From: a virus | Direction: 5' to 3' (one strand) | Virus record (IMG/VR): IMGVR_UViG_3300028920_001457 | Location: 13,444-77,443 of that record | DNA length: 64,000 bases | In this document: positions 13,058-32,075 of the stretch, piece by piece | Layout: each line of letters starts with the position of its first letter | How positions within the stretch are numbered: the stretch's first letter is position 1 | Notes under the pieces: generated by a model | Told to the model about the DNA's origin: nothing | Database searches by the model: none | Seen by the model: the letters and a program-made list of their open reading frames with translations, nothing else | Program-made: the position numbers and the translations under genes

Positions 13058-13546
13058 TTATGTTAAATAGTCATTGTTCCATGTTGATTTATTTGTAATA
13101 TAGTCAACCCATTCCCATGTTTTCCTGGCTTTTTTTATGTCTTTGTCTGAGTAATAAAGATACCATAGCACCATTTCCCAATATAGGTCTTCGTCGTCTA
13201 CGGAGGCCACCCACCACGAACAGAACTGCCATCCGAAAAACCATATCTGAAATGACGGCGACCACTCAAAACGCGGTGTGCCATACTTGTCTTTCCATCC
13301 CAAACCATACCTGACAACCGCCATAGGCCAGCCATAGCTTATATCATAACCAAACAACCTGATGTAACTACATCTTAAAAACTTTGGTCTTTTCTTGCGT
13401 ATTGTAAGTATAGTTCTGTTAAAGTTCCATGGGTCAAAATATGGTGTGCCATGTCTTATTCTACCGAAGTAATACCTCTTGCGGGGTAACACGAAAACCC
13501 CGTCAATCTGTTTCAGTATCTTTTTAAAGCTTTTCATCAGTCCCAT
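13058..13546 (-). CDS. hypothetical Trp-rich phage protein
   Basis: LGWKDKYGTPRFEWSP segment. Confidence 0.7.
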   Translation of the reverse strand: MGLMKSFKKILKQIDGVFVLPRKRYYFGRIRHGTPYFDPWNFNRTILTIRKKRPKFLRCSYIRLFGYDISYGWPMAVVRYGLGWKDKYGTPRFEWSPSFQIWFFGWQFCSWWVASVDDEDLYWEMVLWYLYYSDKDIKKARKTWEWVDYITNKSTWNNDYLT

Positions 13547-15834: not shown

Positions 15835-15913
15835 AGCGGTGGAGTGAAACGGATAAATAAATCATTCGAGTCTCATAATCTCGAGATAGTGGGTTCAACT
15901 CCCACGACCGCAA
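15835..15913 (+). tRNA. tRNA-Met(CAT), possibly initiator-type
   Basis: anticodon loop CTCATAA, T-arm GTGGG-TTCAACT-CCCAC, 1:72 A:A mismatch. Confidence 0.75.
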
Positions 15914-19037: not shown

Positions 19038-20036
19038 ATGATTTCAGTCCTCATTCCAACCATAAATGATACCGAGCTTGGCGACACACTAAAGCTATTA
19101 AGAGAAACTACCGAGTATTCCTCGGATGTTGAGATAATAATAATCAATGACGGCGGCGATATACCAAATTGTGATTTACAAAATGGTAAACTGATAAACA
19201 ATGGCAAGAATTGGGGTGTCGGTTATTCTTTCGACAGGGGGGCAAAACACGCAAAGGGTGATATTATTATCATTATGGGTTCTGATGTACGCCCAAGGCA
19301 CGGATGGCACAAAAAGGTGTTCAACACCGTCTCAAACAACCCCGGTATTTTGGGTTGTGCTGTCAGCGTAGGGCTGAACCCCAAAAGAATGAATATGGAA
19401 GATAAGGGGTGTTTTAGGCGATATGGGGCAGACTTATTATTTACGGTGTCTGAGGACGACCTGCCAGAGAAGTCCGCTCTAAGGGGAAAAGAAGGCGGTT
19501 ATACGGCATTATTTAAAGGTAAGTGGAAACACGGTAAAGAAAACGATAGTCCCTATGAAATACCATGTCTTATGGGTGCATTTTATTTCACAAGCAAGGA
19601 TTATTATTTTAAACTTCATGGCTGGGACACAGAAGAAGGTAATCCCTGGTGCGGACATAGATATTGGTCGGGTCTTGAACCCCACATAAGCCTTAAATCA
19701 TGGTTACATGGTGGTGGCTGTATGCTATACCCCGACATAGAGGCAGGACATGTTTTTGCAAGGCTAAGAAGATCACGCAGATACAGGCATGGGTTGCGTA
19801 GTGCTGAATGGATGTGGTGGAATTCGCTGTGGACACTTGAGACAATGATACTAGATGCCGACTTGAGAAAAAAACTATATGACTTTCCTATTCCTGAACT
19901 GAACCTCGGCAAAGCTAAAAAAATGATAAAAGATCATTATTCAGAAGTAGAGAGAATCAGAGAAAGAAACCGCCAAGAGTTCAAATACGACCACACAATA
20001 TTTACAGATAGGTTTGGGTATGAGTTTAATTTTTAG
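19038..20036 (+). CDS. glycosyltransferase family 2
   Basis: ISVLIPT...EIIIINDGG...N.GVG...GAKHAKGDIII pattern. Confidence 0.85.
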   Translation: MISVLIPTINDTELGDTLKLLRETTEYSSDVEIIIINDGGDIPNCDLQNGKLINNGKNWGVGYSFDRGAKHAKGDIIIIMGSDVRPRHGWHKKVFNTVSNNPGILGCAVSVGLNPKRMNMEDKGCFRRYGADLLFTVSEDDLPEKSALRGKEGGYTALFKGKWKHGKENDSPYEIPCLMGAFYFTSKDYYFKLHGWDTEEGNPWCGHRYWSGLEPHISLKSWLHGGGCMLYPDIEAGHVFARLRRSRRYRHGLRSAEWMWWNSLWTLETMILDADLRKKLYDFPIPELNLGKAKKMIKDHYSEVERIRERNRQEFKYDHTIFTDRFGYEFNF

Positions 20037-20173
20037 AATAATAAAGAATTTCTTTTTCTTATTGTGGGTATCGCATAAGTTGAAATTCAAAAAAACAGAA
20101 TGCCATCCCAATCGTATGTCATATTATCGCCATGCATGGAGGCTCGCTAAAGAAATATCTGTTAATTAAATTA

Positions 20174-20476
20174 ATGGCATACTATAAAGTTACAACATAT
20201 AAATTAAAATCCTTGGGTTTAAGAAGAAATCCCAATATTATGCAATTTGGCAAATATTGGGTTATTGAACCACATCCAACATACGACAACAAAGATAACG
20301 GGGGAATATGGGTAACAAACTCATTATCGAATGCCCGCAAACTTAAAAAATATTATGAAGAAAGATACGGTATGGCAAGAATATTTGAATGTCAAATAGG
20401 AGATATACTATATCAAAATAGTTATCGCACCAAAACAGACAAGGTGAAACTCGCCAAAGAAATACTTGTTAATTAA
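20174..20476 (+). CDS. hypothetical phage protein
   Basis: start MAYYKV. Confidence 0.6.
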   Translation: MAYYKVTTYKLKSLGLRRNPNIMQFGKYWVIEPHPTYDNKDNGGIWVTNSLSNARKLKKYYEERYGMARIFECQIGDILYQNSYRTKTDKVKLAKEILVN

Positions 20477-20485
20477 ATTATAACT

Positions 20486-20665
20486 ATGGATAAACAGGAA
20501 AGAAAACTCATTGGGGATATTTTCAAAGAAGAATTAGACAGATTAAATGTCTTATGCGAGAGGGATGTGTATATTGATGATTATTATAGTACGGTAGAAG
20601 AAGCCGTCATAAGAACCGTCCAAAGATATCTTATAAGAGATCATCTAAAACCTGTGTCAAAATAA
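20486..20665 (+). CDS. hypothetical protein (59 aa)
   Basis: MDKQERKLIGDIFKEEL... fills an intergenic gap. Confidence 0.5.
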   Translation: MDKQERKLIGDIFKEELDRLNVLCERDVYIDDYYSTVEEAVIRTVQRYLIRDHLKPVSK

Positions 20666-20780
20666 AGTGTTACCTTTACATGGTAGATAGGCGGAGATGA
20701 TCTCCCGCCGACAAGAGGGTTGTCTTCGGTTATCCTTCTTCTACCATTTTCAAAACCGAATTAATTAAAAACGAAGGGAA

Positions 20781-21500
20781 ATGCCAAAATCAAAGACAAA
20801 AGACTGCCAGGGGATAAGTCTTAACAAAAGACGCAACAGGTGGGAGGTTACTATTATCTATAAAAGGAAGCGCTATTATTTGGGTTCTTATCACAACAAA
20901 AAGATTGCACGGGCTGTATGGGAGTCCAAGAGAGATGAATTTTATGGGACAGAATCAGTACTCGACTTGCGTGGCGAGGTTTGGATTAAAATGGATAAAC
21001 ATAAGGGGGAATATTATGTTAGCAATAAGGGGCGAGTAAAAAACCTAAATTTTAAGGGCATGGGCTACGAAAGATTGTGTGGTATCATACCTTCGCATGG
21101 CTATAATCAAGTAAAGATAAATAGGGAGAGTTATTCTATACATCGGTTAGTTTTACAATATTTTAAGGGAGAATCCGACCTTCCGGTTAATCACAAGGAC
21201 GGAAATGGAACAAATAATATTTTAGAAAACCTAGAGTATGTTAGTCAGCGGATTAATGGTTGCCATGGTTATTTTGTTGTGAACAAAAGAAATGTCCTAA
21301 CGGGGGCACATTGGGATAAGTGGAATAATAGTTGGCGGTCTGAAATAAACATTAATGGTAGATTGGTATATTTAGGGTCTTTTAATACATCCATAGAGGC
21401 ATGCGATAGATACTTACGGGCATTATTGGATTATGGCCTTCAGGATGATTATGATTATATTGTCGAAATGATTGGACATAAACCCCATGTCGGAAATTAG
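20781..21500 (+). CDS. HNH homing endonuclease (NUMOD4, HNH and AP2-like domains)
   Basis: GEVW...YYVSNKGRVK, HRLV...VNHKDGN..NN..ENLEYV, YLGSF. Confidence 0.88.
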   Translation: MPKSKTKDCQGISLNKRRNRWEVTIIYKRKRYYLGSYHNKKIARAVWESKRDEFYGTESVLDLRGEVWIKMDKHKGEYYVSNKGRVKNLNFKGMGYERLCGIIPSHGYNQVKINRESYSIHRLVLQYFKGESDLPVNHKDGNGTNNILENLEYVSQRINGCHGYFVVNKRNVLTGAHWDKWNNSWRSEININGRLVYLGSFNTSIEACDRYLRALLDYGLQDDYDYIVEMIGHKPHVGN

Positions 21501-21580
21501 TATTATCTTTGCACTCGTATCATTAACTTTGATACCGTTGAAACAACGACCAGAGTGTTAAATTTAAAACAGTTTTTGAC

Positions 21581-22117
21581 ATGTTAGCATTAATTCAAGC
21601 AACCCGGTGGGAAGATCGTAGGGATAGTTCATTCCGAGTTCACCCACTTGATTTACACAAGGATTCGTATAGATATTTTCTTATCAATCCGAATCGAATT
21701 ACAGAGATGAAGGTTGATGCCGCCACGGGGGGCAGCTACTTCAAATTTTCTGATAATCACCGAGATCGCCGTGAAGGAAATTCCGTTGTATGGTGTAATA
21801 GCACTGTAAGTGAGCTACAAGTCGCGCACGACACGGCCTATGCGTCTAATTTTGTGACACTTCCGTTCTTTCCGAAAAACGACCCAAACAGGACGCCCGT
21901 AGATACGACTATTGATGTTTCAGACATAGCCTATTTTTGTGAATACAACCCCGATCCAGATAATTATGTGTGGTTGGTGCACAATTCTAAGGCTTTTAAA
22001 AGAAAAGAGCAATTAGTCAACCTTAATCTTGATGAGGCAGAGGATATTGTAGAGACAGGTACTACAAGTACGACCACTACTTCTGAGGCAGAGACCACAA
22101 CTACACAACACCTGTAA
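21581..22117 (+). CDS. hypothetical protein, paralog of 22136-22600 and of the N-terminus of 62756-63835
   Basis: FLINPNRITEM...AHD...FVTLP..PKND shared pattern. Confidence 0.75.
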   Translation: MLALIQATRWEDRRDSSFRVHPLDLHKDSYRYFLINPNRITEMKVDAATGGSYFKFSDNHRDRREGNSVVWCNSTVSELQVAHDTAYASNFVTLPFFPKNDPNRTPVDTTIDVSDIAYFCEYNPDPDNYVWLVHNSKAFKRKEQLVNLNLDEAEDIVETGTTSTTTTSEAETTTTQHL

Positions 22118-22135
22118 CATTAAAAGCTATTTGAT

Positions 22136-22600
22136 ATGTTATTTGTTACGAGCGTAGATATATGGACGAGCAAAAAGCCCGCTAAGTTACTTAAGGATGC
22201 TTGGGGGACTTATTTCCTGTTAAACACTAATAGGATAATTGAGATGAGGGTCAAGGGTACTGATGATACTAAGTTTTGGTATGCACAAGACCCTGACGAT
22301 GCACGGGATAGCCCCGACTATCTGGAGTGTGGTGCTTCGAGGGCTGTCATCACGGCATGGCATGATGCTACCGCAGACAGCAAGTTTGTTTCTTTGGACA
22401 TATTTCCCAATATGGATATAACGCAAACGGCTGTGGCGACGACAATAGAATGGGCGGACATTGCCTATATTTATCAGACCTACAGGGATGTGTTGGATAA
22501 TGTAGCCCACATGACATATTATGCCAATGCTTTTCAGAGGGTTGAGTGTATTATAGAACACAACCTGCTTGGGATATTGGCGTTACAGAACGCACATTAA
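22136..22600 (+). CDS. hypothetical protein, paralog of 21581-22117
   Basis: FLLNTNRIIEM...WHD...FVSLD..PNMD. Confidence 0.75.
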   Translation: MLFVTSVDIWTSKKPAKLLKDAWGTYFLLNTNRIIEMRVKGTDDTKFWYAQDPDDARDSPDYLECGASRAVITAWHDATADSKFVSLDIFPNMDITQTAVATTIEWADIAYIYQTYRDVLDNVAHMTYYANAFQRVECIIEHNLLGILALQNAH

Positions 22601-22630
22601 TACCATTACGAAATTCTATCATAAGAAACG

Positions 22631-22656
22631 ACCCGTCAGTGATGGCGGGTTTTTTA
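22631..22656 (+). terminator. intrinsic terminator
   Basis: ACCCGTCA-GTGA-TGGCGGGT followed by a T run. Confidence 0.8.
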
Positions 22657-22690
22657 TTGTGTATTGTAATATAAAATAATTGCGAAAATA

Positions 22691-22722
22691 TTTGGTGGAT
22701 TCAAAAACATGTTTTATATTTG
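22691..22722 (+). promoter_or_regulatory. Bacteroidota primary-sigma promoter
   Basis: TTTG, 20 nt spacer, TATATTTG. Confidence 0.75.
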
Positions 22723-22743
22723 CAGAAGTTCTTTGAAGGTATA

Positions 22744-22943
22744 ACCGACAAATGGGGTTCCTATAAAAATACAATTGGATGTAAATTACCCCCCGCCGGT
22801 TTTCGATACGAGACAAAGAGAGTTCCTATAGACCCTGTAAAGGGTCAGCCTCTTAAGCTGATATTTACTCTCCGTCTTTTTATTTTTAATAGGTAAAGGG
22901 TGTTCCTATACAAATCAATGCTTATGATAAATACACCCCACTT
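22744..22943 (+). ncRNA. three tandem copies of a structured RNA motif with invariant GUUCCUAUA
   Basis: covarying stems; see findings. Confidence 0.65.
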
Positions 22944-22957
22944 TTAAAATAAATAAC

Positions 22958-24712
22958 ATGAATACTTTAAGGTTATTCAATGCGGTAATCGCAAAAGAAT
23001 CTACAGAAAAACCCTTCGTTTCAGAAGAGGGATTTATCATTGAATCAAATGCTCTTTGGGCAAAAAATAGGATATTGGAATTCTATCTCAAGGAAAAGTT
23101 AAGTGGTAACGATCTTAACAAAACATTTCACAAATCATGGGCTAAAATTAAAAACAGCTCTCGGTTTGAATTGTTTGTTGAGCAGATATTTCATTATATT
23201 TCTACATACGGAAGTGATTTTCAGGACGAAATATATATTCCCGATGAAGTATTAAATGTACCTGACGTAAAGTTGTCATACAAGGTTGTCCGTGCATATT
23301 CCAAGGAGGAAATGACGGATAAGTGTTTATCACTATTAAAATCAGGTATAGCATTAAAGGAGGAAACAATTAATGAGGTGTTATCGGTGCTTGTTGAAGA
23401 ACTGGATTATTCCTTTACGGGAAATGAGAAAATCAGAAACAAAGAGGCTGTTATAAAAATAGCAGATATTTATGGCGTTCTGCCCAATGACACCATGGAG
23501 TTTTTCAGATATATTATATATCGGGCTACGGGGCAGTCTCTTCTTATTAAGAGCAATGATTTGATAATGAAAATTAAAGAAGGGAATTATAATCCGTCGG
23601 TTCAGTTTAATAAATTCGGATTAGAAAAATTGGCAACGATATTTAATCGTTTTAAGCCATTATTCTTGGCATTTAAACCCAAGTGCGGAAAAACGATCAA
23701 TAAAATTGCGAAGTTGTCTAAAAAGTTTCATAAACCTCTCGTTGTCAACCCCCTTAATACCGCAACAAGTGAGCTGATGGGGGATGATGATAGACATTGG
23801 TTGGATAATGCTACGCCGTACGCTTTATTTAAAGTATTATCGGCATGTTATACGAGAGCGAGCGGCCAAGAGTCTTTCGTTTATCGGATTAGAAACGGGA
23901 AATCCTGGGTCAAGGAAAAGGAAACTATTTTGAGGGTGAACAAGTTAAATTTTGATTTCATTATAAAGTATCTGAAAGAAAGATATGATTTATCAGAAAA
24001 GAAATTCTTTTTGCCTGCTGATATAAAATATGCCCTTCCTACATCAGAAAAAATGTTTGTTGGCAATATTCCCACAGGAACGAGATTTTATGGCAGGAAG
24101 TTGGCGGTTGGGATATATTGGGAGGACGCATGGGGGGCAAGAGACCTCGATCTTTCGGGGTTGACGCTTTCAGGGCATAAGGTTGGTTGGAATGCAGAAT
24201 ATGATTATGGCGAAGGACAATTAATGTATTCTGGCGATATTACATCCGCCCCCAATGGTGCGGTAGAGTACCTGTATGCCAACAAAGGGCTTCGGGAATC
24301 GGTTTTAATAAAAAACAATGTTTATTCGGGAAGTAATGAATGTGATTATAAAATCGTTATTGGGTTGGGGGATAAGATTTCTGTGGATTATATGATGAAC
24401 CCAAATAATCTTTTTATAGAAGTCAAATGTAAGTCCGTACAAAAACAGACCATATTGGGGATTCTTACTCCAAAGAAAATGGGGCAGTGCTTTGTATTGC
24501 TTAATTTTGGGGCGGGACATGTAAGGGTGTCGGGCAACAGTAAGATATCTAATATCGCCCTTAAGTCACTATATGAACAATGGAACAAACCGTTTTCATT
24601 TAATAAATTGATTAAATTATTGGGGGCGCAGATTGTTGAAAACAAAGAGGATGCAGATTATGATTTCTCGTCTGATAATTTAGAAAAAGATTCTTTTATT
24701 AAGATATTTTAA
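22958..24712 (+). CDS. large hypothetical protein with C-terminal TerD-like domain
   Basis: GIYW...RDLDLS...YSGDITSAPNGAVEY motif; helical N-terminal half. Confidence 0.7.
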   Translation: MNTLRLFNAVIAKESTEKPFVSEEGFIIESNALWAKNRILEFYLKEKLSGNDLNKTFHKSWAKIKNSSRFELFVEQIFHYISTYGSDFQDEIYIPDEVLNVPDVKLSYKVVRAYSKEEMTDKCLSLLKSGIALKEETINEVLSVLVEELDYSFTGNEKIRNKEAVIKIADIYGVLPNDTMEFFRYIIYRATGQSLLIKSNDLIMKIKEGNYNPSVQFNKFGLEKLATIFNRFKPLFLAFKPKCGKTINKIAKLSKKFHKPLVVNPLNTATSELMGDDDRHWLDNATPYALFKVLSACYTRASGQESFVYRIRNGKSWVKEKETILRVNKLNFDFIIKYLKERYDLSEKKFFLPADIKYALPTSEKMFVGNIPTGTRFYGRKLAVGIYWEDAWGARDLDLSGLTLSGHKVGWNAEYDYGEGQLMYSGDITSAPNGAVEYLYANKGLRESVLIKNNVYSGSNECDYKIVIGLGDKISVDYMMNPNNLFIEVKCKSVQKQTILGILTPKKMGQCFVLLNFGAGHVRVSGNSKISNIALKSLYEQWNKPFSFNKLIKLLGAQIVENKEDADYDFSSDNLEKDSFIKIF

Positions 24713-24713
24713 T

Positions 24714-24721
24714 TATCTTTG
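24714..24721 (+). promoter_or_regulatory. -7 promoter box for tRNA operon 1
   Basis: TATCTTTG, 4 nt before the leader ATG; no clear -33 box. Confidence 0.7.
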
Positions 24722-24725
24722 CACC

Positions 24726-24788
24726 ATGATTAGAATACAGCATATAGAGCAACCGCAACAGCCAAGAGCCGATATTGGGTCTGGATAG
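24726..24788 (+). CDS. attenuator leader peptide 1, MIRIQHIEQPQQPRADIGSG
   Basis: codons 4-13 are only Ile(ATA), Gln, His, Glu and Pro, the tRNAs of operon 1. Confidence 0.85.
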   Translation: MIRIQHIEQPQQPRADIGSG

Positions 24789-24811
24789 GTGTTCTATGTG
24801 TTTATAATACA

Positions 24812-24844
24812 GAGCCTTCTGGACTATTTCAGAGGGCTTTTTTT
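24812..24844 (+). terminator. attenuator terminator 1
   Basis: GAGCCTTCTGGA-CTAT-TTCAGAGGGCTT plus T run, ending 4 nt before tRNA-Pro. Confidence 0.85.
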
Positions 24845-24848
24845 ATTT

Positions 24849-24921
24849 CGGAAGTATGGTGTAATCAGGTAGCATACGTGCCTTGGGCGCACGGGGAGTA
24901 GTTCGAATCTAATATTTCCGA
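24849..24921 (+). tRNA. tRNA-Pro(TGG)
   Basis: CGTGC-CTTGGGC-GCACG anticodon arm; acceptor CGGAAGT/ATTTCCG. Confidence 0.9.
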
Positions 24922-24927
24922 CAATAT

Positions 24928-24999
24928 TGGCACATAGGTTAATGGTAAGACCTCTCGGCTTATACCCCAGCAGTCCAAGTTCGATTCTTGGTGTGCCAA
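24928..24999 (+). tRNA. tRNA-Ile(TAT)
   Basis: loop CTTATAC; acceptor TGGCACA/TGTGCCA resembles tRNA-Ile(GAT). Confidence 0.85.
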
Positions 25000-25000
25000 C

Positions 25001-25075
25001 GGTGGTTATGGTGTAATGGCAACATAACTGTTTGTGGAGCAGTGGTTATCAGTTCGAGCCTGATTAATCACCCCA
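25001..25075 (+). tRNA. tRNA-His(GTG)
   Basis: loop TTGTGGA, G-1:C73 pair, encoded CCA. Confidence 0.92.
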
Positions 25076-25076
25076 T

Positions 25077-25147
25077 GCTCGGTTCTTCTAACGGCAGGAA
25101 ATCGGGTTTTCACCCCGGCAATAGCGGTTCAATTCCGCTACCGAGTA
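25077..25147 (+). tRNA. tRNA-Glu(TTC)
   Basis: TCGGG-TTTTCAC-CCCGG. Confidence 0.9.
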
Positions 25148-25153
25148 CGATAA

Positions 25154-25224
25154 TGCCTTGTGGTGTAATAGTAACACATAACACTTTGGATGTTATGTTT
25201 TCGGTGCGAATCCGAACAAGGCAT
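25154..25224 (+). tRNA. tRNA-Gln(TTG)
   Basis: TAACA-CTTTGGA-TGTTA; U1:A72. Confidence 0.9.
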
Positions 25225-25233
25225 CAAAATAAA

Positions 25234-25264
25234 TTTGGAAATTTAAAAATATGTATTATCTTTG
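25234..25264 (+). promoter_or_regulatory. promoter for tRNA operon 2
   Basis: TTTG, 19 nt spacer, TATCTTTG. Confidence 0.8.
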
Positions 25265-25283
25265 TACCAATAAAAAACAAAAA

Positions 25284-25358
25284 ATGCAGTTAGTCAGAAA
25301 GAATATGGTGAATATTGACCGCACAGGCGCAACCTTGCGAGGGGGTATTCCTATATGA
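25284..25358 (+). CDS. attenuator leader peptide 2, MQLVRKNMVNIDRTGATLRGGIPI
   Basis: codons 4-17 cover all 11 tRNAs of operon 2 and nothing else. Confidence 0.88.
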   Translation: MQLVRKNMVNIDRTGATLRGGIPI

Positions 25359-25379
25359 TTTCTGTAAGAAACAACAGGG

Positions 25380-25408
25380 ATGCCCTCAAGAGATTGGGGG
25401 CATTTTTT
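25380..25408 (+). terminator. attenuator terminator 2
   Basis: ATGCCCTCAA-GAGA-TTGGGGGCAT plus T run, ending 2 nt before tRNA-Ile. Confidence 0.88.
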
Positions 25409-25410
25409 AT

Positions 25411-25481
25411 TGGCTCATAGTTTAATAGTAGAACGCATCTCTGATACGGATGTAGCCTAAGTGCGATTCTTAGTGAGCCAA
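25411..25481 (+). tRNA. tRNA-Ile(GAT)
   Basis: CATCT-CTGATAC-GGATG. Confidence 0.88.
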
Positions 25482-25485
25482 CAAT

Positions 25486-25558
25486 AGCGGGTTGTGTAGA
25501 AATAGTATCTCGTCAGTCTCATAAGCTGAAGTTATGGGTGCAATCCCCATACCCGCTA
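25486..25558 (+). tRNA. tRNA-Met(CAT), elongator-type
   Basis: TCAGT-CTCATAA-GCTGA; paired 1:72; Ile2 identity not excluded. Confidence 0.8.
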
Positions 25559-25562
25559 CAAT

Positions 25563-25634
25563 GGGAATATGGTGAAATGGGTATCACGATGGACTGTTAA
25601 TCCTTCGTTATAGGTTCAAGTCCTATTGTTCCCG
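25563..25634 (+). tRNA. tRNA-Asn(GTT)
   Basis: loop CTGTTAA, G73. Confidence 0.9.
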
Positions 25635-25638
25635 CAAA

Positions 25639-25710
25639 GTCCTTGTGGTGTAATGGAGAGCACAAGTGTCTTCTAAGCATTTAGTCAGGGTTCGACTCCT
25701 TGCGGGGACA
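25639..25710 (+). tRNA. tRNA-Arg(TCT)
   Basis: AGTGT-CTTCTAA-GCATT. Confidence 0.9.
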
Positions 25711-25716
25711 CTAAAT

Positions 25717-25791
25717 ACCCTTGTAGGCTCCTTGGTGGAGAACCAGATTGTCACTCTGGTAAAACAGACGGATCGTAACCGTTCAGGGGTG
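25717..25791 (+). tRNA. tRNA-Asp(GTC)
   Basis: CCAGA-TTGTCAC-TCTGG, G73. Confidence 0.85.
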
Positions 25792-25796
25792 CAAGC

Positions 25797-25869
25797 GGGT
25801 TGCAATGTACCAAGGCTGGCGAGAGACCCTTGCAAGGTTTTTGGCTCGGTTCGATTCCGAGGCGATCCA
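25797..25869 (+). tRNA. tRNA-Ala(TGC)
   Basis: loop CTTGCAA; G3:U70 identity pair. Confidence 0.88.
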
Positions 25870-25872
25870 CAA

Positions 25873-25944
25873 GCAGGATAGGTGTTGATGGTTGCATAAG
25901 AGCCTTCCAAGCTCAAGGAGTGAATTCGAATTTCACATCCTGCT
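25873..25944 (+). tRNA. tRNA-Gly(TCC)
   Basis: loop CTTCCAA, U73. Confidence 0.88.
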
Positions 25945-25948
25945 CAAT

Positions 25949-26023
25949 GGGCGATTAGTTTAATGGACAGAATATATCGCTACGGACGATATGGTGAGGA
26001 TTCGATTTCTTCATCGCCCACCA
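25949..26023 (+). tRNA. tRNA-Arg(ACG)
   Basis: TATCG-CTACGGA-CGATA, encoded CCA. Confidence 0.9.
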
Positions 26024-26025
26024 AT

Positions 26026-26097
26026 GACCCTATAATTTCAACAGTAGAATCCCATCCTTTTAAGATGGTTGTCTTGGGGCGGAACCAAGTGGGGTCA
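26026..26097 (+). tRNA. tRNA-Lys(TTT), atypical T-loop
   Basis: CCATC-CTTTTAA-GATGG; T-loop GGCGGAA. Confidence 0.8.
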
Positions 26098-26101
26098 CAA
26101 A

Positions 26102-26173
26102 GGCAGGTTAGTTTAAGCGGCAAAACACGTGATTTGTAACCATGAGATACGGCTTCGATCGCTGTACTTGCCT
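26102..26173 (+). tRNA. tRNA-Thr(TGT)
   Basis: loop TTTGTAA; acceptor GGCAGGT/ACTTGCC. Confidence 0.82.
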
Positions 26174-26178
26174 CAAAT

Positions 26179-26251
26179 AGCCCGATAGTGTAGCGGTTAA
26201 GCACGGCACCCTTACAAGATGTCAGCCACAGTTCGAGTCTGTGTTGGGCTA
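26179..26251 (+). tRNA. tRNA-Val(TAC)
   Basis: loop CTTACAA; canonical D and T arms. Confidence 0.88.
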
Positions 26252-26269
26252 CAAAAAAACATAAATATA

Positions 26270-26300
26270 TTTGTTTATTTAAAAATTATTATTAATTTTG
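26270..26300 (+). promoter_or_regulatory. promoter for tRNA operon 3
   Basis: TTTG, 19 nt spacer, TAATTTTG. Confidence 0.8.
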
Positions 26301-26306
26301 CAGATT

Positions 26307-26369
26307 ATGAAAAATCTATGGTGTTCATATAGTTTATTTTCACTCTTGCTCTTGAGGCGAGGCGGATAA
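26307..26369 (+). CDS. attenuator leader peptide 3, MKNLWCSYSLFSLLLLRRGG
   Basis: codons 4-16 cover all 9 tRNAs of operon 3 and use only those amino acids. Confidence 0.9.
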   Translation: MKNLWCSYSLFSLLLLRRGG

Positions 26370-26393
26370 ACTATATCTACCAAAGATATATTG

Positions 26394-26421
26394 AAGCCTC
26401 GCTTATAAAGCGGGGTTTTTT
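26394..26421 (+). terminator. attenuator terminator 3
   Basis: AAGCCTCGCTT-ATA-AAGCGGGGTTT plus T run, ending 5 nt before tRNA-Leu. Confidence 0.88.
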
Positions 26422-26426
26422 GTTAT

Positions 26427-26499
26427 GGGGAATTGACGTAAATGGCAACCGTATTGGGTTTAAGCCCCAAGTTTGAGAGTTCGAATCTCTTGTTCCCCA
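26427..26499 (+). tRNA. tRNA-Leu(TAA), short variable loop
   Basis: TTGGG-TTTAAGC-CCCAA, A73. Confidence 0.85.
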
Positions 26500-26502
26500 C
26501 AT

Positions 26503-26575
26503 GGTCGAGTGACGTAACAGGCAACCGTATCCGTCTCAAAAGCGGAGTTTATGGGTTCGAATCCCATCTTGACCA
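26503..26575 (+). tRNA. tRNA-Leu(CAA), short variable loop
   Basis: TCCGT-CTCAAAA-GCGGA, A73. Confidence 0.85.
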
Positions 26576-26579
26576 CAAA

Positions 26580-26652
26580 GCTCAGGTAGTAAATTGGCAA
26601 AGCAACTTGACTTAGGATCAAGGATTTGTGAGTTCGAGTCTCACCCTGAGTA
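26580..26652 (+). tRNA. tRNA-Leu(TAG), short variable loop
   Basis: CTTGA-CTTAGGA-TCAAG, A73. Confidence 0.85.
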
Positions 26653-26656
26653 CTAT

Positions 26657-26748
26657 GGATGGCTAAACCACAGTAGGTCTAAGTGGGACGGTCTTGAAAA
26701 CCGTAGGTCGCTCAACACGGCGTGTAAGTTCGAGTCTTACGCCATCCG
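26657..26748 (+). tRNA. tRNA-Ser(TGA)
   Basis: ACGGT-CTTGAAA-ACCGT, long variable arm, G73. Confidence 0.9.
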
Positions 26749-26752
26749 CGAA

Positions 26753-26835
26753 GGGACGGCTTGGCATTAGTGAGCCTAAGAGTCTGTAAAACTCCCGCTT
26801 CGGCTGTGGTGGTGCAAATCCATCTCGTCCCACCA
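26753..26835 (+). tRNA. tRNA-Tyr(GTA)
   Basis: loop CTGTAAA, variable arm, encoded CCA. Confidence 0.88.
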
Positions 26836-26836
26836 A

Positions 26837-26919
26837 GGAGAGTAAATCATCAAGGCGATGACTACGCCCGCTAAGCGATAGGTTCTGAAAGGAATGGGAC
26901 TCGGGTTCTCTGCTCTCCG
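26837..26919 (+). tRNA. tRNA-Ser(GCT), divergent
   Basis: acceptor GGAGAGT/GCTCTCC, G73, loop CCGCTAA, variable arm; irregular T arm. Confidence 0.7.
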
Positions 26920-26924
26920 CAAAC

Positions 26925-26994
26925 AGGGATACCCATTGGAGTGGTAAGCGGTCTCCAAAACCGTGATTTGAATGTTCGACCCGTTCTATCCCTG
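26925..26994 (+). tRNA. tRNA-Trp(CCA), reduced D arm
   Basis: GCGGT-CTCCAAA-ACCGT, G73. Confidence 0.82.
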
Positions 26995-26998
26995 CTAT

Positions 26999-27075
26999 GG
27001 AGAAGTAGCTGAGTCGGTTCAAGCGTCGGACTGAAAATCCGAAGTAGATGAGTTCAATTCTCATATTCTCCACCA
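26999..27075 (+). tRNA. tRNA-Phe(GAA)
   Basis: TCGGA-CTGAAAA-TCCGA, encoded CCA. Confidence 0.92.
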
Positions 27076-27076
27076 A

Positions 27077-27143
27077 GACCCAATAAAAGCACAAAACGTG
27101 GTTTGCAAAACCATGGGGGACGGTGCGATTCCGTCTTGGGTCT
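27077..27143 (+). tRNA. tRNA-Cys(GCA), apparently lacking a D arm
   Basis: GTGGT-TTGCAAA-ACCAT, perfect acceptor and T stems, U73. Confidence 0.78.
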
Positions 27144-27181
27144 CTAATATATTTCTTACCTTTGCATAAAACAAGAATAGT

Positions 27182-29692
27182 ATGGGCAAGAAACAACCGC
27201 CAAAGGCAGAAAAGAAACTTTCCTTTGAAACAGACTTTGAGTTACAGGAAGAAACCCGCCTAAAGCTACGTCCCGAAGATATAGTAAAGATAAAAGAGGA
27301 AGCAGGCAAACTACCCGATGACTTTAATCCTTATGGGAACTATATGCCCGAAAAACTCAGATTTCTGGGCGACGAACCACCCCCAAACACCAAAAGATTT
27401 GTTGGAATAAATGTGGATGATGATGATCTGACACCGATTTATGTAAGCACACCCGCCCCCCCGCCGAAAGAATTAATAGATTATCACGACCTACCACCCA
27501 CAGAACAATATTGGCGGCGTATGGAAGTACCCAAACGACTGCATAAATTAGAAGAGAGAGCCTTCCTTGCGCTATTTGAGGTAGAAAGAAGAAACAGGCA
27601 GGAAACAGTACAGGGCTATAGGATTTATCAGAAATATTGGGAAATATTAGAAGCAGAACAGGATAAATATGCGGAAGAGATAGCATGGATAAAAAAGATG
27701 TGGTGGTACAGGACTAACGGCTATTGGTTCTATAATGATGGCGAACCCGCCTATTGTACTGGTGAATATTTTGATTATCTTAACTTTTGGTATATAAAGG
27801 ATGGTGAGACACATGTGGAATTCAGGGAAGAGGATCGGGTTATTTCTATTTTTTCACATTATCTAAGAACAACAACCGAGTCTTTCGCCAACATAAACCC
27901 CACCACGGGTAGGGCAATGAAAAATAAAGATGGCAAGTATGATATGGTGGATGTCGGTGCAAGAGTATTTTTCGGTGACATGAAACCGAAATTCAGGAGG
28001 TGTGGGGAAACGCAATGGGCGTGTCACGGGATATGGCTTGGTGCGAGTACGACACCCGCCGCTTATGGTACTATCATATCCATGGATGGTGAAAACGCAC
28101 AAAAGCACTATTACAAAAAGCTAATACCCGCATGGAATAAATATCCTATGTTTCTCAAGCCAATATGGATGGGTACGAAACGTCCCACAAATATTAAGTT
28201 GATAGAACCACCCAATGTATTTAATCCCAATATGGAGGGATTGGGTTCTAATATTGATTATACAGAAAGCTCCGGGGTGTCGAAGAATGATGGTGATACA
28301 TTACATTTTTGTCTCTCAGACGAGGAGGGAAAAAGTAAGTCACCTATAGCCGAAAGGTGGAGTGTAAATAAGATAGCTATGTCAACGGGTGGTGGGTCTA
28401 ACATCCTTAATAACGCTTATGCGTGGCATCCGAGTACCGTTGAGGATATTGGTGACGGTGCGCCAGAGTATTTTAAAATGTGGCAACTATCTAATTTTTA
28501 TGAAAGGATACCCATACTTGGGCAGACACACTCGGGGTTGGCAAGGATTTTCATTCCCGCATATAAGAAACTCGAGGGTTTTATTGACAGGTGGGGTAAG
28601 TCGGTATCGGATACACCAACGAAACGACAGATAAAATACAGTCCACGAGCCAAATTTGCACTCACGGGCAAGGGTGCAAGGGAAACACTACAGGCAGTTC
28701 TTGATTCCTTGTTAGCCAAGGGGACACCCGAGGCACTTGAGGCATACAGGTCAAGGCGCAGAAAGTTCCCGATGAAGTCGGCAGATGCATGGTTGGGGAG
28801 TTCGGGTAATGTGGGTTTCAACCTTGAGATAATAGACAAGCGTATAGAGGAACTCAATAGGATAAAGTCTTTTGGCAAGATGAATTATAAAACCGGGTAT
28901 TTTTACAGGGAAAACAATCATCCACAGGGCGATGTGTTGTGGCGTACAGACCTCGACAACCCCAAGTTTATCATGTCCAAGGACTTACCACAGGAATTAA
29001 CCAACAGAAGGAGTGTGGTCGACTTTTACGATGGTCTCAGGCAACAGTGGAAGAAATCATGGACACCAGTAGACGGATATAAATTCACCCTTGGGGTGGA
29101 TATGTTCAGAAATCTATCGCCCGTAGAGGCAAAACAGGCATCTAAATTTGGGGGATTTACCAATAACTCCCGCCAGAGTAATGGTGGTATAGCTATTCTA
29201 TGGGAATATGATTCAGAATATCCCGATAGTGGCAGGTGTGTATTGTCGTATAATTATCGTCCATCGACACAAAAAGAGTTTATGGATGATGTTCTTATGG
29301 CGGCACAGTATTTCGGGGCAATGATATATCCCGAACAAAACGTAGAGCGGTTTATTGAGTATATGTTTGATGAGGGCTATGGCGGGTATGGGCTTTATGA
29401 TATTGATTTGGTAACTGGTAATATAAAGAAACTACCAGGGCGATATACTACAAAAGAAAGCCTGCAAGAGATGTTCAGGGAATATAAGGACTATATAGAA
29501 CGTAAGGGTGCGGAAGAAGAACACGATGATTTGCTAATGCAGATGAAAAACATACGTGGGGTAGAAGATGCTACACGTAATGACCTTTTCGTTGCTTTCG
29601 GTATGTGTCTTCTTGGAAGTAAGTCCCGTGTCAGGGAAATTATAAAGCGTGAAGACTTTGGTGAGGCAATAGCAATAGACGATATTTTTTAA
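27182..29692 (+). CDS. terL: terminase large subunit (crAss-like type)
   Basis: KFRRCGET Walker-A variant, LSDEEGK Walker B, LGVD nuclease motif, RND near the C-terminus; directly upstream of portal. Confidence 0.88.
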   Translation: MGKKQPPKAEKKLSFETDFELQEETRLKLRPEDIVKIKEEAGKLPDDFNPYGNYMPEKLRFLGDEPPPNTKRFVGINVDDDDLTPIYVSTPAPPPKELIDYHDLPPTEQYWRRMEVPKRLHKLEERAFLALFEVERRNRQETVQGYRIYQKYWEILEAEQDKYAEEIAWIKKMWWYRTNGYWFYNDGEPAYCTGEYFDYLNFWYIKDGETHVEFREEDRVISIFSHYLRTTTESFANINPTTGRAMKNKDGKYDMVDVGARVFFGDMKPKFRRCGETQWACHGIWLGASTTPAAYGTIISMDGENAQKHYYKKLIPAWNKYPMFLKPIWMGTKRPTNIKLIEPPNVFNPNMEGLGSNIDYTESSGVSKNDGDTLHFCLSDEEGKSKSPIAERWSVNKIAMSTGGGSNILNNAYAWHPSTVEDIGDGAPEYFKMWQLSNFYERIPILGQTHSGLARIFIPAYKKLEGFIDRWGKSVSDTPTKRQIKYSPRAKFALTGKGARETLQAVLDSLLAKGTPEALEAYRSRRRKFPMKSADAWLGSSGNVGFNLEIIDKRIEELNRIKSFGKMNYKTGYFYRENNHPQGDVLWRTDLDNPKFIMSKDLPQELTNRRSVVDFYDGLRQQWKKSWTPVDGYKFTLGVDMFRNLSPVEAKQASKFGGFTNNSRQSNGGIAILWEYDSEYPDSGRCVLSYNYRPSTQKEFMDDVLMAAQYFGAMIYPEQNVERFIEYMFDEGYGGYGLYDIDLVTGNIKKLPGRYTTKESLQEMFREYKDYIERKGAEEEHDDLLMQMKNIRGVEDATRNDLFVAFGMCLLGSKSRVREIIKREDFGEAIAIDDIF

Positions 29693-29723
29693 ATTAGTAA
29701 CTTTGCATCAAATTTAGTTACGA

Positions 29724-32075
29724 ATGAATCTTGCACAGAAGAATTATGTTGAGGGTGAGTATAGTTTCCCCCGACAAGACATAAATCCGAAAGAGAAAGA
29801 CGAATCCTACCATAGACGTAATACCGAAGCTATATATTCCCTATTTTGTAAAGGAAAAACAGCCTGGGGTGTCAATGCCTATGATTACTTTCAGACATTA
29901 AGGGATTACTCATGCGGCAATCAGTCTACAGACCGCTATAAATCATGGTTATTATCAGACCAGTCCGAGGGTGCTACAGAGACAGTGGCGACGGATTCTT
30001 TTGATAGCATACCCCTGTCGAGGGTCAGCAAAAAAGAGGGATGGTATGCCATGATGTGGCAGAACATAAGTCCTGCGCCGACGATACTTGAAGCCCTGCA
30101 TGGGCAATTTGATAAGTTAGATCACGACCTGTATGTTAATGCCATTGATTCCAACTCCAAAGACATAGAAGAAAATGAGGCGTTCCTTAAATATTTTGAA
30201 GGGAAGAACCTTGCATGGCAGACAGAGTATAAGCAAAAGGCGGGCATACCTATAGACGAAGAGGTTTATTATCCCAAGTCACAACAGGAATTTGAGATGT
30301 TTAAGGCTCAAGACGGCTTTAAACTTGGTGTGGCACGCAGTATGCAAAAACTACTTCGTTATTCCTTTGGTGTAAGTAAGTGGGATACGGTGGCACGCAA
30401 GAAGGTGATAGATGATATTATATGTCTGCGTTATGGTGCTTTGAGAGATTATTATGATAGTGAGGATCATAAGTTCAAGACCAAGTGGGCAGACCCCGCA
30501 AGGACGGTAATACAATTTTCCAATGAATCCGACTATAGTGATAGTGAATATGGCGGGTATTTTGAATTCTGGACTATATCCAACCTAAAGAGGAAAAGAC
30601 CCGATGTGGATGAAAGTAAATGGAAGGCTCTTGCACGCTCATCGAATGCCATGGGATTTCTTGATAACCCACGCACATGGAACGACAAATACAGCGCATT
30701 AGACCCATCTACACATCTATATGGCTATGATAGCTTCAAAGTACCAGTATTCTGGGGTGTGTGGATAGATATGGATGCACAGAAAAGACAGTATTATACG
30801 TCTTATGGACGTAGGCTTGTGCGGGATTTGGAATATGACGAAGAAGGCAAAAACACCGAAAACAAAGAAGTAAAGACAGTCCATATAAGAAAGGTAAGGG
30901 AATGTTATTGGGTGATAGGCACAGAGATAACTTTTGATTCAGGTGTTGTTAAGATGGCATCCCGCAAGGGATATAGCAAACCGCAACTACCCATACATGT
31001 AGAACAGCTATTACAGCCTTCGATAGTAGAAAGGCTTATCCCTATCTTAGATCAGATAGAACTGACATTCTTACGATACCAGAACTCTCTTGCACAGATG
31101 GTAGAAAACGGTTATGCCCTGAACACCTCTATGCTTGGTAATGTGACCTATGGCGGGAAGAAACTAAAACCCGCAGAGGTGGTTAAGTTATTCAGGCAGA
31201 CAGGATTCCTGTTGTATCAGTATGCGGCAGGAACAGGGTTATATACAGGTGGTGTAGCCACACCCATCACAGAGATAGAGGGGGGTATGAAGAAACGTGT
31301 CGAAGAGACATTACAGACTTTAGATATGTGGTTTGGCGTTATAAAGTCCATGACGGGGATAGATGTTGTCGCATTGGCGACGACCCCCGTAGCCACAGAC
31401 CCCAAAGAGCTACCGGCAGGACAGGTGCAGATAACACAAAACGTGCTAAAGACTATCATGTACGCTACCTCTGAATTAAAGCAGAGTGTGGGTGAGTGTA
31501 TGATGCGCAGGATACAGACGGGCATAAGAACGAACAAATCTATACGCAAGGCTTATGCGGGTGTTATAAGTAATGCCGACATGGAGGCTATTGTGAGGAT
31601 GGAAGCCGAGGGTACGCAGTATGGGCTGACACTCAAACCGAAACCCGACAAGATAGCCAAGGCAAGGTTCGAGAAATGGATTGACATAGCCCTACAAAAC
31701 ACGAGAGAACAGCGTCCGGGCATAGACCTTAATGATGCTATATACTTCATGTCACAACTTGAGAACGGTGCTGACCTGACCGAATTAGAGAAACAGCTTG
31801 AATATGCTATTGAGAAGAATAAGCAAGAGGCACAGGCTAATTCTGAAAGGATGATGCAGGTACAGGCAGAGGAAAACCGCAAGAGTGAGGAACAAAAACA
31901 GCAAGGCGAACTTGCTAATATAAAAGCAGAGGCAGAAGTTAAGCTACAGGAAGAACTTGTACGGGGACAGATTAAAGATAGAGAGTCGAACAAAGAGATA
32001 GCGGCAGACCTTTATAAGTCATTAAGGGAGGAAGCTGCGGCTGAAGAAGGCGTTAATATTAGCGGAGGACGATAA
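29724..32075 (+). CDS. portal protein
   Basis: 783 aa after TerL, C-terminal Q/E-rich coiled coil; podovirus gene order. Confidence 0.85.
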   Translation: MNLAQKNYVEGEYSFPRQDINPKEKDESYHRRNTEAIYSLFCKGKTAWGVNAYDYFQTLRDYSCGNQSTDRYKSWLLSDQSEGATETVATDSFDSIPLSRVSKKEGWYAMMWQNISPAPTILEALHGQFDKLDHDLYVNAIDSNSKDIEENEAFLKYFEGKNLAWQTEYKQKAGIPIDEEVYYPKSQQEFEMFKAQDGFKLGVARSMQKLLRYSFGVSKWDTVARKKVIDDIICLRYGALRDYYDSEDHKFKTKWADPARTVIQFSNESDYSDSEYGGYFEFWTISNLKRKRPDVDESKWKALARSSNAMGFLDNPRTWNDKYSALDPSTHLYGYDSFKVPVFWGVWIDMDAQKRQYYTSYGRRLVRDLEYDEEGKNTENKEVKTVHIRKVRECYWVIGTEITFDSGVVKMASRKGYSKPQLPIHVEQLLQPSIVERLIPILDQIELTFLRYQNSLAQMVENGYALNTSMLGNVTYGGKKLKPAEVVKLFRQTGFLLYQYAAGTGLYTGGVATPITEIEGGMKKRVEETLQTLDMWFGVIKSMTGIDVVALATTPVATDPKELPAGQVQITQNVLKTIMYATSELKQSVGECMMRRIQTGIRTNKSIRKAYAGVISNADMEAIVRMEAEGTQYGLTLKPKPDKIAKARFEKWIDIALQNTREQRPGIDLNDAIYFMSQLENGADLTELEKQLEYAIEKNKQEAQANSERMMQVQAEENRKSEEQKQQGELANIKAEAEVKLQEELVRGQIKDRESNKEIAADLYKSLREEAAAEEGVNISGGR

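Follow-up and report, generated by a model that had tools for sequence, protein, structure and literature searches.

Transcription attenuation by leader peptides has its classic model in trpL and hisL, and enterobacteria also possess multivalent leaders such as thrL (Thr, Ile) and ilvL/ivbL (Leu, Val, Ile). T-boxes need neither a ribosome nor an open reading frame (ORF), as they bind uncharged tRNA themselves. Phage tRNA genes are usually seen as constitutive codon-usage helpers or as spares against tRNA-cleaving host defences, and we know of little about how their expression is controlled. Attenuators have also been described in front of aminoacyl-tRNA synthetase genes, i.e. pheST in γ-proteobacteria as well as trpS and leuS in Streptomyces (PMC1262725). 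The tRNA array of Anabaena PCC 7120 (the trn operon) is silent, is induced under translational stress and is controlled by the protein repressor TrcR at its promoter (PMC8421152; PMC10272220). In mycobacteria, leaderless polycysteine short ORFs are presented, in the title and abstract opening of the report, as cysteine-responsive attenuators of operonic genes (bioRxiv 10.1101/834739). Here, we turn to a 64,000-nt stretch of viral DNA (the window; positions 13,444 to 77,443 of IMG/VR record IMGVR_UViG_3300028920_001457, a 77-kb uncultured virus record), in which a short element, unit 1, stands directly in front of a block of five tRNA genes. We consider it likely that unit 1 is a ribosome-mediated leader-peptide transcription attenuator gating this five-gene block, in other words, that the phage probably makes the block-1 tRNAs only when ribosomes read their codons slowly.

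In its layout, unit 1 is like thrL, ilvL, trpL and hisL: a short ORF lies near the promoter, its sensor codons fall into region 1 (the 5′ strand of a predicted anti-antiterminator, or 1:2, hairpin), and the predicted 1:2, antiterminator and terminator pairings would exclude one another. As in the enterobacterial leaders, the stop codon is placed such that a finishing ribosome would block the antiterminator, and as in thrL and ilvL, several amino acids would be sensed by one leader. Unlike these leaders, however, unit 1 is phage-borne, has a Bacteroidota promoter and a probably leaderless mRNA, and targets tRNA genes rather than biosynthetic enzymes. Moreover, its codons match tRNA species (the reader of ATA is distinct from that of ATT/ATC), with one to four codons per tRNA instead of long runs. 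The closest counterparts in terms of target are the pheST, trpS and leuS attenuators, in which a component of decoding is likewise controlled via the amino acid sensed. Yet these respond to a single amino acid and govern cellular protein genes, whereas the phage product would be the tRNA itself, which would relieve the stall directly. T-boxes share with unit 1 the use of transcription antitermination to report on the tRNA pool and to control decoding-related genes, but here a ribosome and an ORF would be used. The Anabaena array is similar in that accessory tRNAs are kept off and are switched on when translation is impaired; it differs in being cellular and in lacking codon-specific sensing, and its description never mentions an attenuator, a leader or a terminator (PMC8421152). 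As far as the title and abstract opening go, the mycobacterial polycysteine ORFs resemble unit 1 as leaderless 5′ short ORFs whose translation speed sets downstream expression, and differ in phylum, in responding to one amino acid and in controlling operonic rather than tRNA genes. An Rfam cmscan of positions 20000-32000 with E values up to 1 returned no leader-family match on unit 1 and no T-box riboswitch; unit 3, a sister element described below, matched Trp_leader with 30 bits, below the gathering score of 41. Full-text literature searches yielded no account of leader-peptide attenuation of tRNA genes. In this reading, a known regulatory principle would be applied to a new class of target, tRNA genes.

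The genes in question belong to a 25-gene tRNA array on the plus strand (24849-27148), directly 5′ of the large terminase gene (27182-29692; phrog_6681). Default ARAGORN found 18 of the tRNAs, and relaxed settings together with Rfam added five more, namely Met(CAT), Gly(TCC), Lys(TTT), Ser(TGA) and Trp(CCA). The remaining two, Ser(GCT) and Cys(GCA), were recognized in the window by visual inspection, and both were called by ARAGORN in the homologous array of a relative, L011. Altogether, the 25 tRNAs cover all 20 amino acids. The array is organized in three blocks, each of which follows a Bacteroidota-type (sigma-A) −7 box, a short ORF and a GC-rich hairpin succeeded by a T-run. Block 1 consists of tRNA-Pro(TGG) (24849-24922), tRNA-Ile(TAT) (24928-25000), tRNA-His(GTG) (25002-25075), tRNA-Glu(TTC) (25077-25148) and tRNA-Gln(TTG) (25154-25225), all on the plus strand and all called by ARAGORN; their Rfam tRNA scores of 42-61 bits lie above the gathering score (24849-25225).

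The leader ORF of unit 1 (MIRIQHIEQPQQPRADIGSG; 24726-24788, plus strand, as are all features of the window given below) comprises 20 codons followed by TAG (24786-24788). Its codons 4-13 (24735-24764) are ATA CAG CAT ATA GAG CAA CCG CAA CAG CCA, i.e. two Ile-ATA, four Gln, one His, one Glu and two Pro codons, all of them read by the five block-1 tRNAs and with every one of these tRNAs represented. Codons were assigned by ordinary wobble rules, counting each U34 or A34 tRNA for its whole codon box (CGG under Arg-ACG being doubtful). Under this assignment, the 61 sense codons split over the three blocks into 11, 31 and 19 codons, and blocks 1, 2 and 3 account for 19.6%, 55.2% and 25.2%, respectively, of codon usage in the long ORFs of the phage. 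Written as the block to which each successive codon belongs, leader 1 reads 22211111111112222232, an own-block run of 10 that has a P of 6.8e-7 for an ORF of that length. The corresponding strings of leader 2 (213222222222222223222211; run of 14, P = 1.2e-3) and leader 3 (22233333333333332222; run of 13, P = 9.2e-8) follow the same rule, so that the codon match of the three units jointly has a P of about 1e-16. Of all 600 ATG ORFs with 12-40 codons that the two strands of the window contain, each leader was the single top ORF for its own block and was placed immediately 5′ of that block; for block 1, the second-best ORF has a run of 6 vs 10 in leader 1. Each of the tRNAs (25/25) has at least one codon in the leader of its own block. 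ATA, the main Ile codon of the phage (56%), is read by an unusual tRNA-Ile(UAU). The putative sensor codons hence correspond to the function of the genes they would regulate, as is typical of attenuators.

The leader is preceded by a −7 box of the Bacteroidota sigma-A type, recognized by its motif (TATCTTTG; 24714-24721). The window contains the motif TTAnnTTTGnA 17 times vs 7.7 expected, mostly right before ORF starts; it precedes all three tRNA units and the terminase gene. As the flavobacterial −7 box occupies positions −12 to −5 relative to the start site (PMC9723704), transcription of unit 1 is predicted to start at 24726, the A of the ATG (24726-24728), which lies 4 nt after the box. The unit-1 mRNA is thus probably exactly leaderless. 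The distance between box and ATG is 4-7 nt in 10/10 unit-1 and unit-3 sequences and 4-5 nt in all four unit-1 versions at hand. Bacteroidota do without Shine-Dalgarno sequences, and a short ORF with a start that would be usable in this way directly follows the predicted promoter, as would be expected of an attenuator.

Between the leader and the tRNA genes lies a predicted intrinsic terminator (24811-24848), a hairpin of 12-13 bp (24811-24840; −17 kcal/mol) with T7 at 24838-24844, followed by ATTT. Only these 4 nt separate it from tRNA-Pro, which starts at 24849, and the gap holds no further promoter box. In the minimum-energy fold, region 1 (24739-24754, within codons 5-10) pairs with region 2 (24788-24802) to give the 1:2 hairpin, a duplex of −16.9 kcal/mol with one bulged A, so that the sensor codons are predicted to be part of this pairing. 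The tip of the hairpin carries an inner stem (24762-24784) which, in free RNA, hides the start of the antiterminator strand. That strand (GGTCTGGATAGGT; 24778-24790) overlaps codons 18-20 and the stop codon, a position where a finishing ribosome is predicted to block it, and its partner (GCCTTCTGGACT; 24814-24825) comprises most of the terminator 5′ arm together with two loop bases; the duplex amounts to −12.9 kcal/mol. As a whole, the unit-1 leader folds with a z-score of −5.06, and 0/200 shuffles were as stable. Much of this had been laid out in a preliminary description made from the letters of the sequence. Its near-leaderless start with the ATG 4 nt after the −7 box holds in position, the box at −12 to −5 placing +1 on the AUG; its listing of codons 4-13 and their match to the Pro, Ile(TAT), His, Glu and Gln tRNAs is correct and now carries the P of 6.8e-7 given above; and its pairing of the control region (24741-24754) with 24788-24800, with one bulge, reappears in the minimum-energy fold (24739-24754 x 24788-24802), as does its terminator, a hairpin (24811-24840) followed by T7. 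The antiterminator suggested there, GGGTCTG with CAGAGCCT, reaches only −8.4 vs −12.9 kcal/mol for 24778-24790 x 24814-24825 and has been replaced by the latter.

The alternative pairings were followed in nascent transcripts, which were folded as far as the terminator loop and carried a ribosome footprint that took in the A site and 10 or 13 nt more. As long as the A site is on codons 3/4-14, the antiterminator holds 11 of the 13 arm bases, in near-exact overlap with the matched codons 4-13. It declines from codon 15 and does not form between codon 16 and the stop; 1 arm base is left with the ribosome at the stop codon or with no ribosome at all. When the segment from codon 11 to the terminator was shuffled (400 shuffles per sequence), the full three-state pattern arose in 2/400 cases for the window and in 2/400 for L011.

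Direct findings thus comprise the sequence parts, the codon match, its conservation and the alternative pairings in silico; beyond them, we infer that the ORF is translated, that ribosomes stall at one or a few of its codons, that the pairings compete kinetically and that a physiological trigger exists. In the mechanism we propose, transcription of a leaderless mRNA would start at or beside the AUG, and a ribosome would translate the 20-codon leader while RNA polymerase proceeds. With tRNAs plentiful, the ribosome would reach the last codons or the stop and cover 24778-24790, the terminator would form, and transcription would end 2-6 nt before tRNA-Pro. With a charged tRNA scarce, the ribosome would linger on any of codons 4-13, covering region 1 and blocking the 1:2 hairpin; the free antiterminator strand could then capture the emerging 5′ arm of the terminator, and polymerase would read into the tRNA genes. 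Without a ribosome, the 1:2 hairpin would form and the terminator would act. The leader would accordingly behave as an OR gate over its five tRNAs, and because the newly made tRNAs would relieve the stall, the device would close a negative feedback loop.

The same design recurs twice within the array. Unit 2 (25257-25409) consists of a −7 box, a leader (25284-25358; MQLVRKNMVNIDRTGATLRGGIPI), an antiterminator (25341-25352 x 25376-25387) and a terminator, and is followed by the 11 tRNAs of block 2 (25411-26252). Unit 3 (26293-26426) has a −7 box, a leader (26307-26369; MKNLWCSYSLFSLLLLRRGG), an antiterminator (26355-26363 x 26396-26404) and a terminator (26393-26419), behind which stand the nine tRNAs of block 3 (26427 to about 27148). 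Beyond the own-block codon rule, the three leaders have nothing in common in sequence. Units 2 and 3 change to the antiterminator even in equilibrium folds, and in consensus folds across relatives they show compensatory pairs, CG to UA twice and UA to CG twice. In one such case, CG became UA in 2/4 sequences through the synonymous changes CGC to CGT and TTG to TTA. Both leaders are kept in relatives, with own-block runs of 12-16 codons. A separate feature of these two units is a conserved AAATAAATTTGG motif about 20 nt 5′ of their −7 boxes (25226-25256; 26253-26292), found at the same places in the relatives L009, L011, L016 and L030. The motif matches the TTTG −33 element known from promoters in Bacteroidota and is missing from unit 1 of the window.

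Relatives were fetched from metagenome and viral contigs with the terminase as a handle, and share the block order of the window. The terminase search brought up many relatives that are 64-79% identical, on contigs of up to 60 kb. Full arrays are present in L011 and in L030, an 86-kb viral contig; L009 covers the array starting at the unit-1 T-run, unit 3 is found in L016 and L031, and L020 and L023 have unit 1 only. A search with a leader pattern requiring ATA and QQP gave no matches, and looser patterns gave L020, L023, L030 and L031. Searches of genome contigs with the terminase profile and with the leader pattern found nothing, and megablast and blastn of the array against GenBank phages returned tRNA-level matches only and no relative of the leaders.

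The unit-1 leaders of L011 (MIRNQHIEQPINLLRW), L020/L023 (MIRIQHIEQPISLLTG) and L030 (MIRIQHIEQPIDLLTG) share with the window the frame, the stop position and MIR-x-QHIEQP, while their C-terminal halves vary freely. The QHIEQP core contains one codon per block-1 tRNA plus a second Gln codon; for a six-codon window to be all block 1 and to cover all five tRNAs, the chance P is 3.4e-6. Its versions differ at four nucleotides, all of them synonymous third positions. The terminator is a GC hairpin with a T-run in all four versions, and its sequences are unrelated to one another. In each version, the best partner of the terminator 5′ arm is nevertheless the strand over the last leader codons and the stop, a strand beginning 42-51 nt past the A of the start codon. 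Duplexes between strand and own arm amount to −15.4 (window), −12.7, −17.1 and −13.1 kcal/mol, values reached by 21, 10, 10 and 4 of 500 shuffles, respectively. The window strand pairs with its own arm at −15.4 vs about −9 kcal/mol with the relatives' arms, and the relatives' strands bind the window arm at −6.2 to −11.6 kcal/mol, worse than their own arms. Since pairing with the own arm exceeds cross pairing, the leader tail and the terminator have changed together. The 1:2 hairpin is kept in L011 and L020 and is weak in L030. RNAalifold missed the 1:2 stem when given a MAFFT alignment of unit 1, in which the 3′ halves, being divergent, were misaligned; folds of the individual sequences were used in its place. 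Codons 1-3 of leader 1, ATG ATT AGA (MIR; 24726-24734), are identical in all four homologs though they are not block-1 codons; this fixed start may relate to leaderless initiation. DNA contigs from salt marsh furthermore carry 24727-24848 unchanged, as well as another variant, which ends in ...EQPPILLSG*; a search for RNA runs containing the locus returned none.

These comparisons bear on two alternatives in which the leader would not gate the tRNA genes by attenuation. If there were no regulation, the element would be a leaky terminator or insulator behind a 584-codon gene, with an untranslated ORF whose codons match by chance or through RNA-structure constraint. Such a view would account for the upstream ORF ending at 24712, right before the element, for the conservation of region 1 at the nucleotide level, as structure alone could require, and for a terminator that never opens at equilibrium. 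It would leave unaccounted for that the terminator sits downstream of its own −7 box, that the codon run has the low P values given above for one unit and for three, that ATG, frame and stop position are conserved while all changes in the core are synonymous, and that the terminators are wholly different, yet the complementary strand overlapping the stop changes with them. We regard it as quite improbable. The second alternative assigns the function to the terminated RNA of ~120 nt or to the 20-residue peptide, either of which would have a target of its own, with the tRNAs supplied by read-through or from another promoter. In Sinorhizobium, activity in trans is reported both for attenuator RNAs that have been terminated and for leader peptides (PMC6614838, PMC7968998). 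In the phage, however, the three leaders share only the own-block codon rule, the C-terminal halves of the peptides vary freely, and the 4 nt between terminator and tRNA-Pro hold no other promoter box, which makes this alternative highly improbable.

Several observations nonetheless weigh against attenuation by unit 1. The comparison of this unit rests on only four distinct sequences, and its 1:2 stem offers no two-sided compensatory change because region 1 hardly varies. With its −12.9 kcal/mol, the antiterminator duplex is of modest strength and only moderately better than shuffles, 21/500 of which match it. Shuffles of L020 and L030 yield the full three-state pattern not rarely (70/400 and 35/400, respectively), and the off state of the free RNA is weak or absent in these two. 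His and Glu are each represented by one codon only in leader 1, and stalling would in either case have to occur at a single codon. Leaderless mRNAs are a minority in Bacteroidota (~4-5% in published data). In full-length equilibrium folds of unit 1, the terminator has a probability of 1.0 at every ribosome position; antitermination would therefore rest on an assumed kinetic window. The masked-footprint folding that the preliminary description had named as a check was consequently negative at equilibrium and positive only as long as the transcript is nascent, with the terminator 3′ arm still to be made. Attenuators are generally taken to act by such kinetic competition, and the E. coli trp terminator, too, is more stable than its antiterminator. 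The equilibrium dominance of the unit-1 terminator would hence not be unusual for an attenuator, yet the kinetic route is an assumption here. Unit 1 of L020 switches at equilibrium.

The distribution of the element adds further points against it. In L020 (reverse strand) and L023, which come from two samples, the unit-1 leader and terminator persist while the array behind them has collapsed; what a deletion has left is a truncated tRNA-Pro fused to decayed Trp, Phe and Cys remnants, followed by the terminase gene. L007, which has the gene that lies upstream of the array in the window, carries tRNA genes without such leaders, and L002, related through its terminase, lacks tRNA genes altogether. 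The device would therefore be lineage-specific and able to outlive its cargo for a while. The array of the crAss-like phage cr111_1 (L008) and that of L007 were considered as further cases and set aside, as gap-by-gap reading gave no convincing leader units. All in all, the attenuator reading put forward in the preliminary description is supported by the codon statistics, the two sister units and the conserved homologs.

What such an attenuator would respond to is a separate matter. The same device might sense the general status of translation, e.g. infection stage, ribosome availability, translation inhibitors or amino-acid starvation, with its codon content a by-product or a tuner of timing. 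In nascent folds of the relatives, the antiterminator is already present with any early A site (codons 1-13) and is gone once the A site is in the last 3-5 codons; any slowing of the ribosome at an early codon would therefore open the gate. Leader 1 additionally contains block-2 codons at positions 2-3, and in Anabaena it is translational stress in general that induces the tRNA array (PMC8421152). General sensing leaves unexplained, however, why each of the three leaders is written in codons of its own block rather than in those of the other two, and why the core has one codon per tRNA and has undergone synonymous changes only. We therefore consider it unlikely. Tentatively, the three attenuators may instead constitute a codon-resolved monitor of the tRNA pool, in which each block would be turned on only when one of its own codons is decoded slowly, and which would form the sensing arm of a combined tRNA-supply and counter-defence system. 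Candidate triggers would be shortage or decay of host tRNAs during infection, heavy phage demand for poorly read codons (ATA) and tRNA-cleaving defences. In favour of the last of these, an RtcB RNA ligase gene (L009:519-1685, plus strand; Pfam E = 5.6e-115), with a −7 box of its own, lies within the array of L009 between block 1 and unit 2; RtcB was not found in the window's own record, which is 77% complete.

If the proposed attenuation holds true, the ribosome would feed back directly on the supply of tRNAs through a leader written in the codons of the very tRNAs it gates, and the trp/his paradigm would reach beyond amino-acid biosynthesis into the decoding apparatus, into phages and into Bacteroidota. 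If the monitor is real, host tRNAs would be replaced on demand, for instance after decay or cleavage by anticodon nucleases. The occurrence of the same design three times in the array and again in relatives may point to a general rule of phage tRNA-array organization, and the leaders might find use as compact natural sensors of individual tRNA availability.

Some features of the surroundings remain to be mentioned. The closest cultured terminases, ~24% identical, are those of phages of Cellulophaga, Tenacibaculum, Maribacter and Flavobacterium, which makes Bacteroidota the very probable host group. The 584-codon gene upstream of the element (22958-24712) had no match in Pfam or PHROG; homologs that are 45-70% identical occur in the viral contigs L005, L006 and L007, with no leader-gated array nearby. 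A lone tRNA-like gene with a CAT anticodon (15835-15913) lies 9 kb from the array and scores 29.4 bits in Rfam, barely over the cut-off. No codon-matched leader stands ahead of it; the gene is preceded by a −7 box (15449) and then ~380 nt that look non-coding. The array of L009, whose contig begins after the unit-1 leader, has a CAT-anticodon tRNA (L009:162-234), unrelated in sequence, in place of the tRNA-Ile(TAT) of the window; this tRNA may be a lysidine-type Ile2 or an elongator Met tRNA. Finally, endonuclease genes reside inside the arrays of two relatives, an HNH gene at L016:571-1020 and a PD-(D/E)XK gene at L030:5213-5707, both of which probably encode homing endonucleases.

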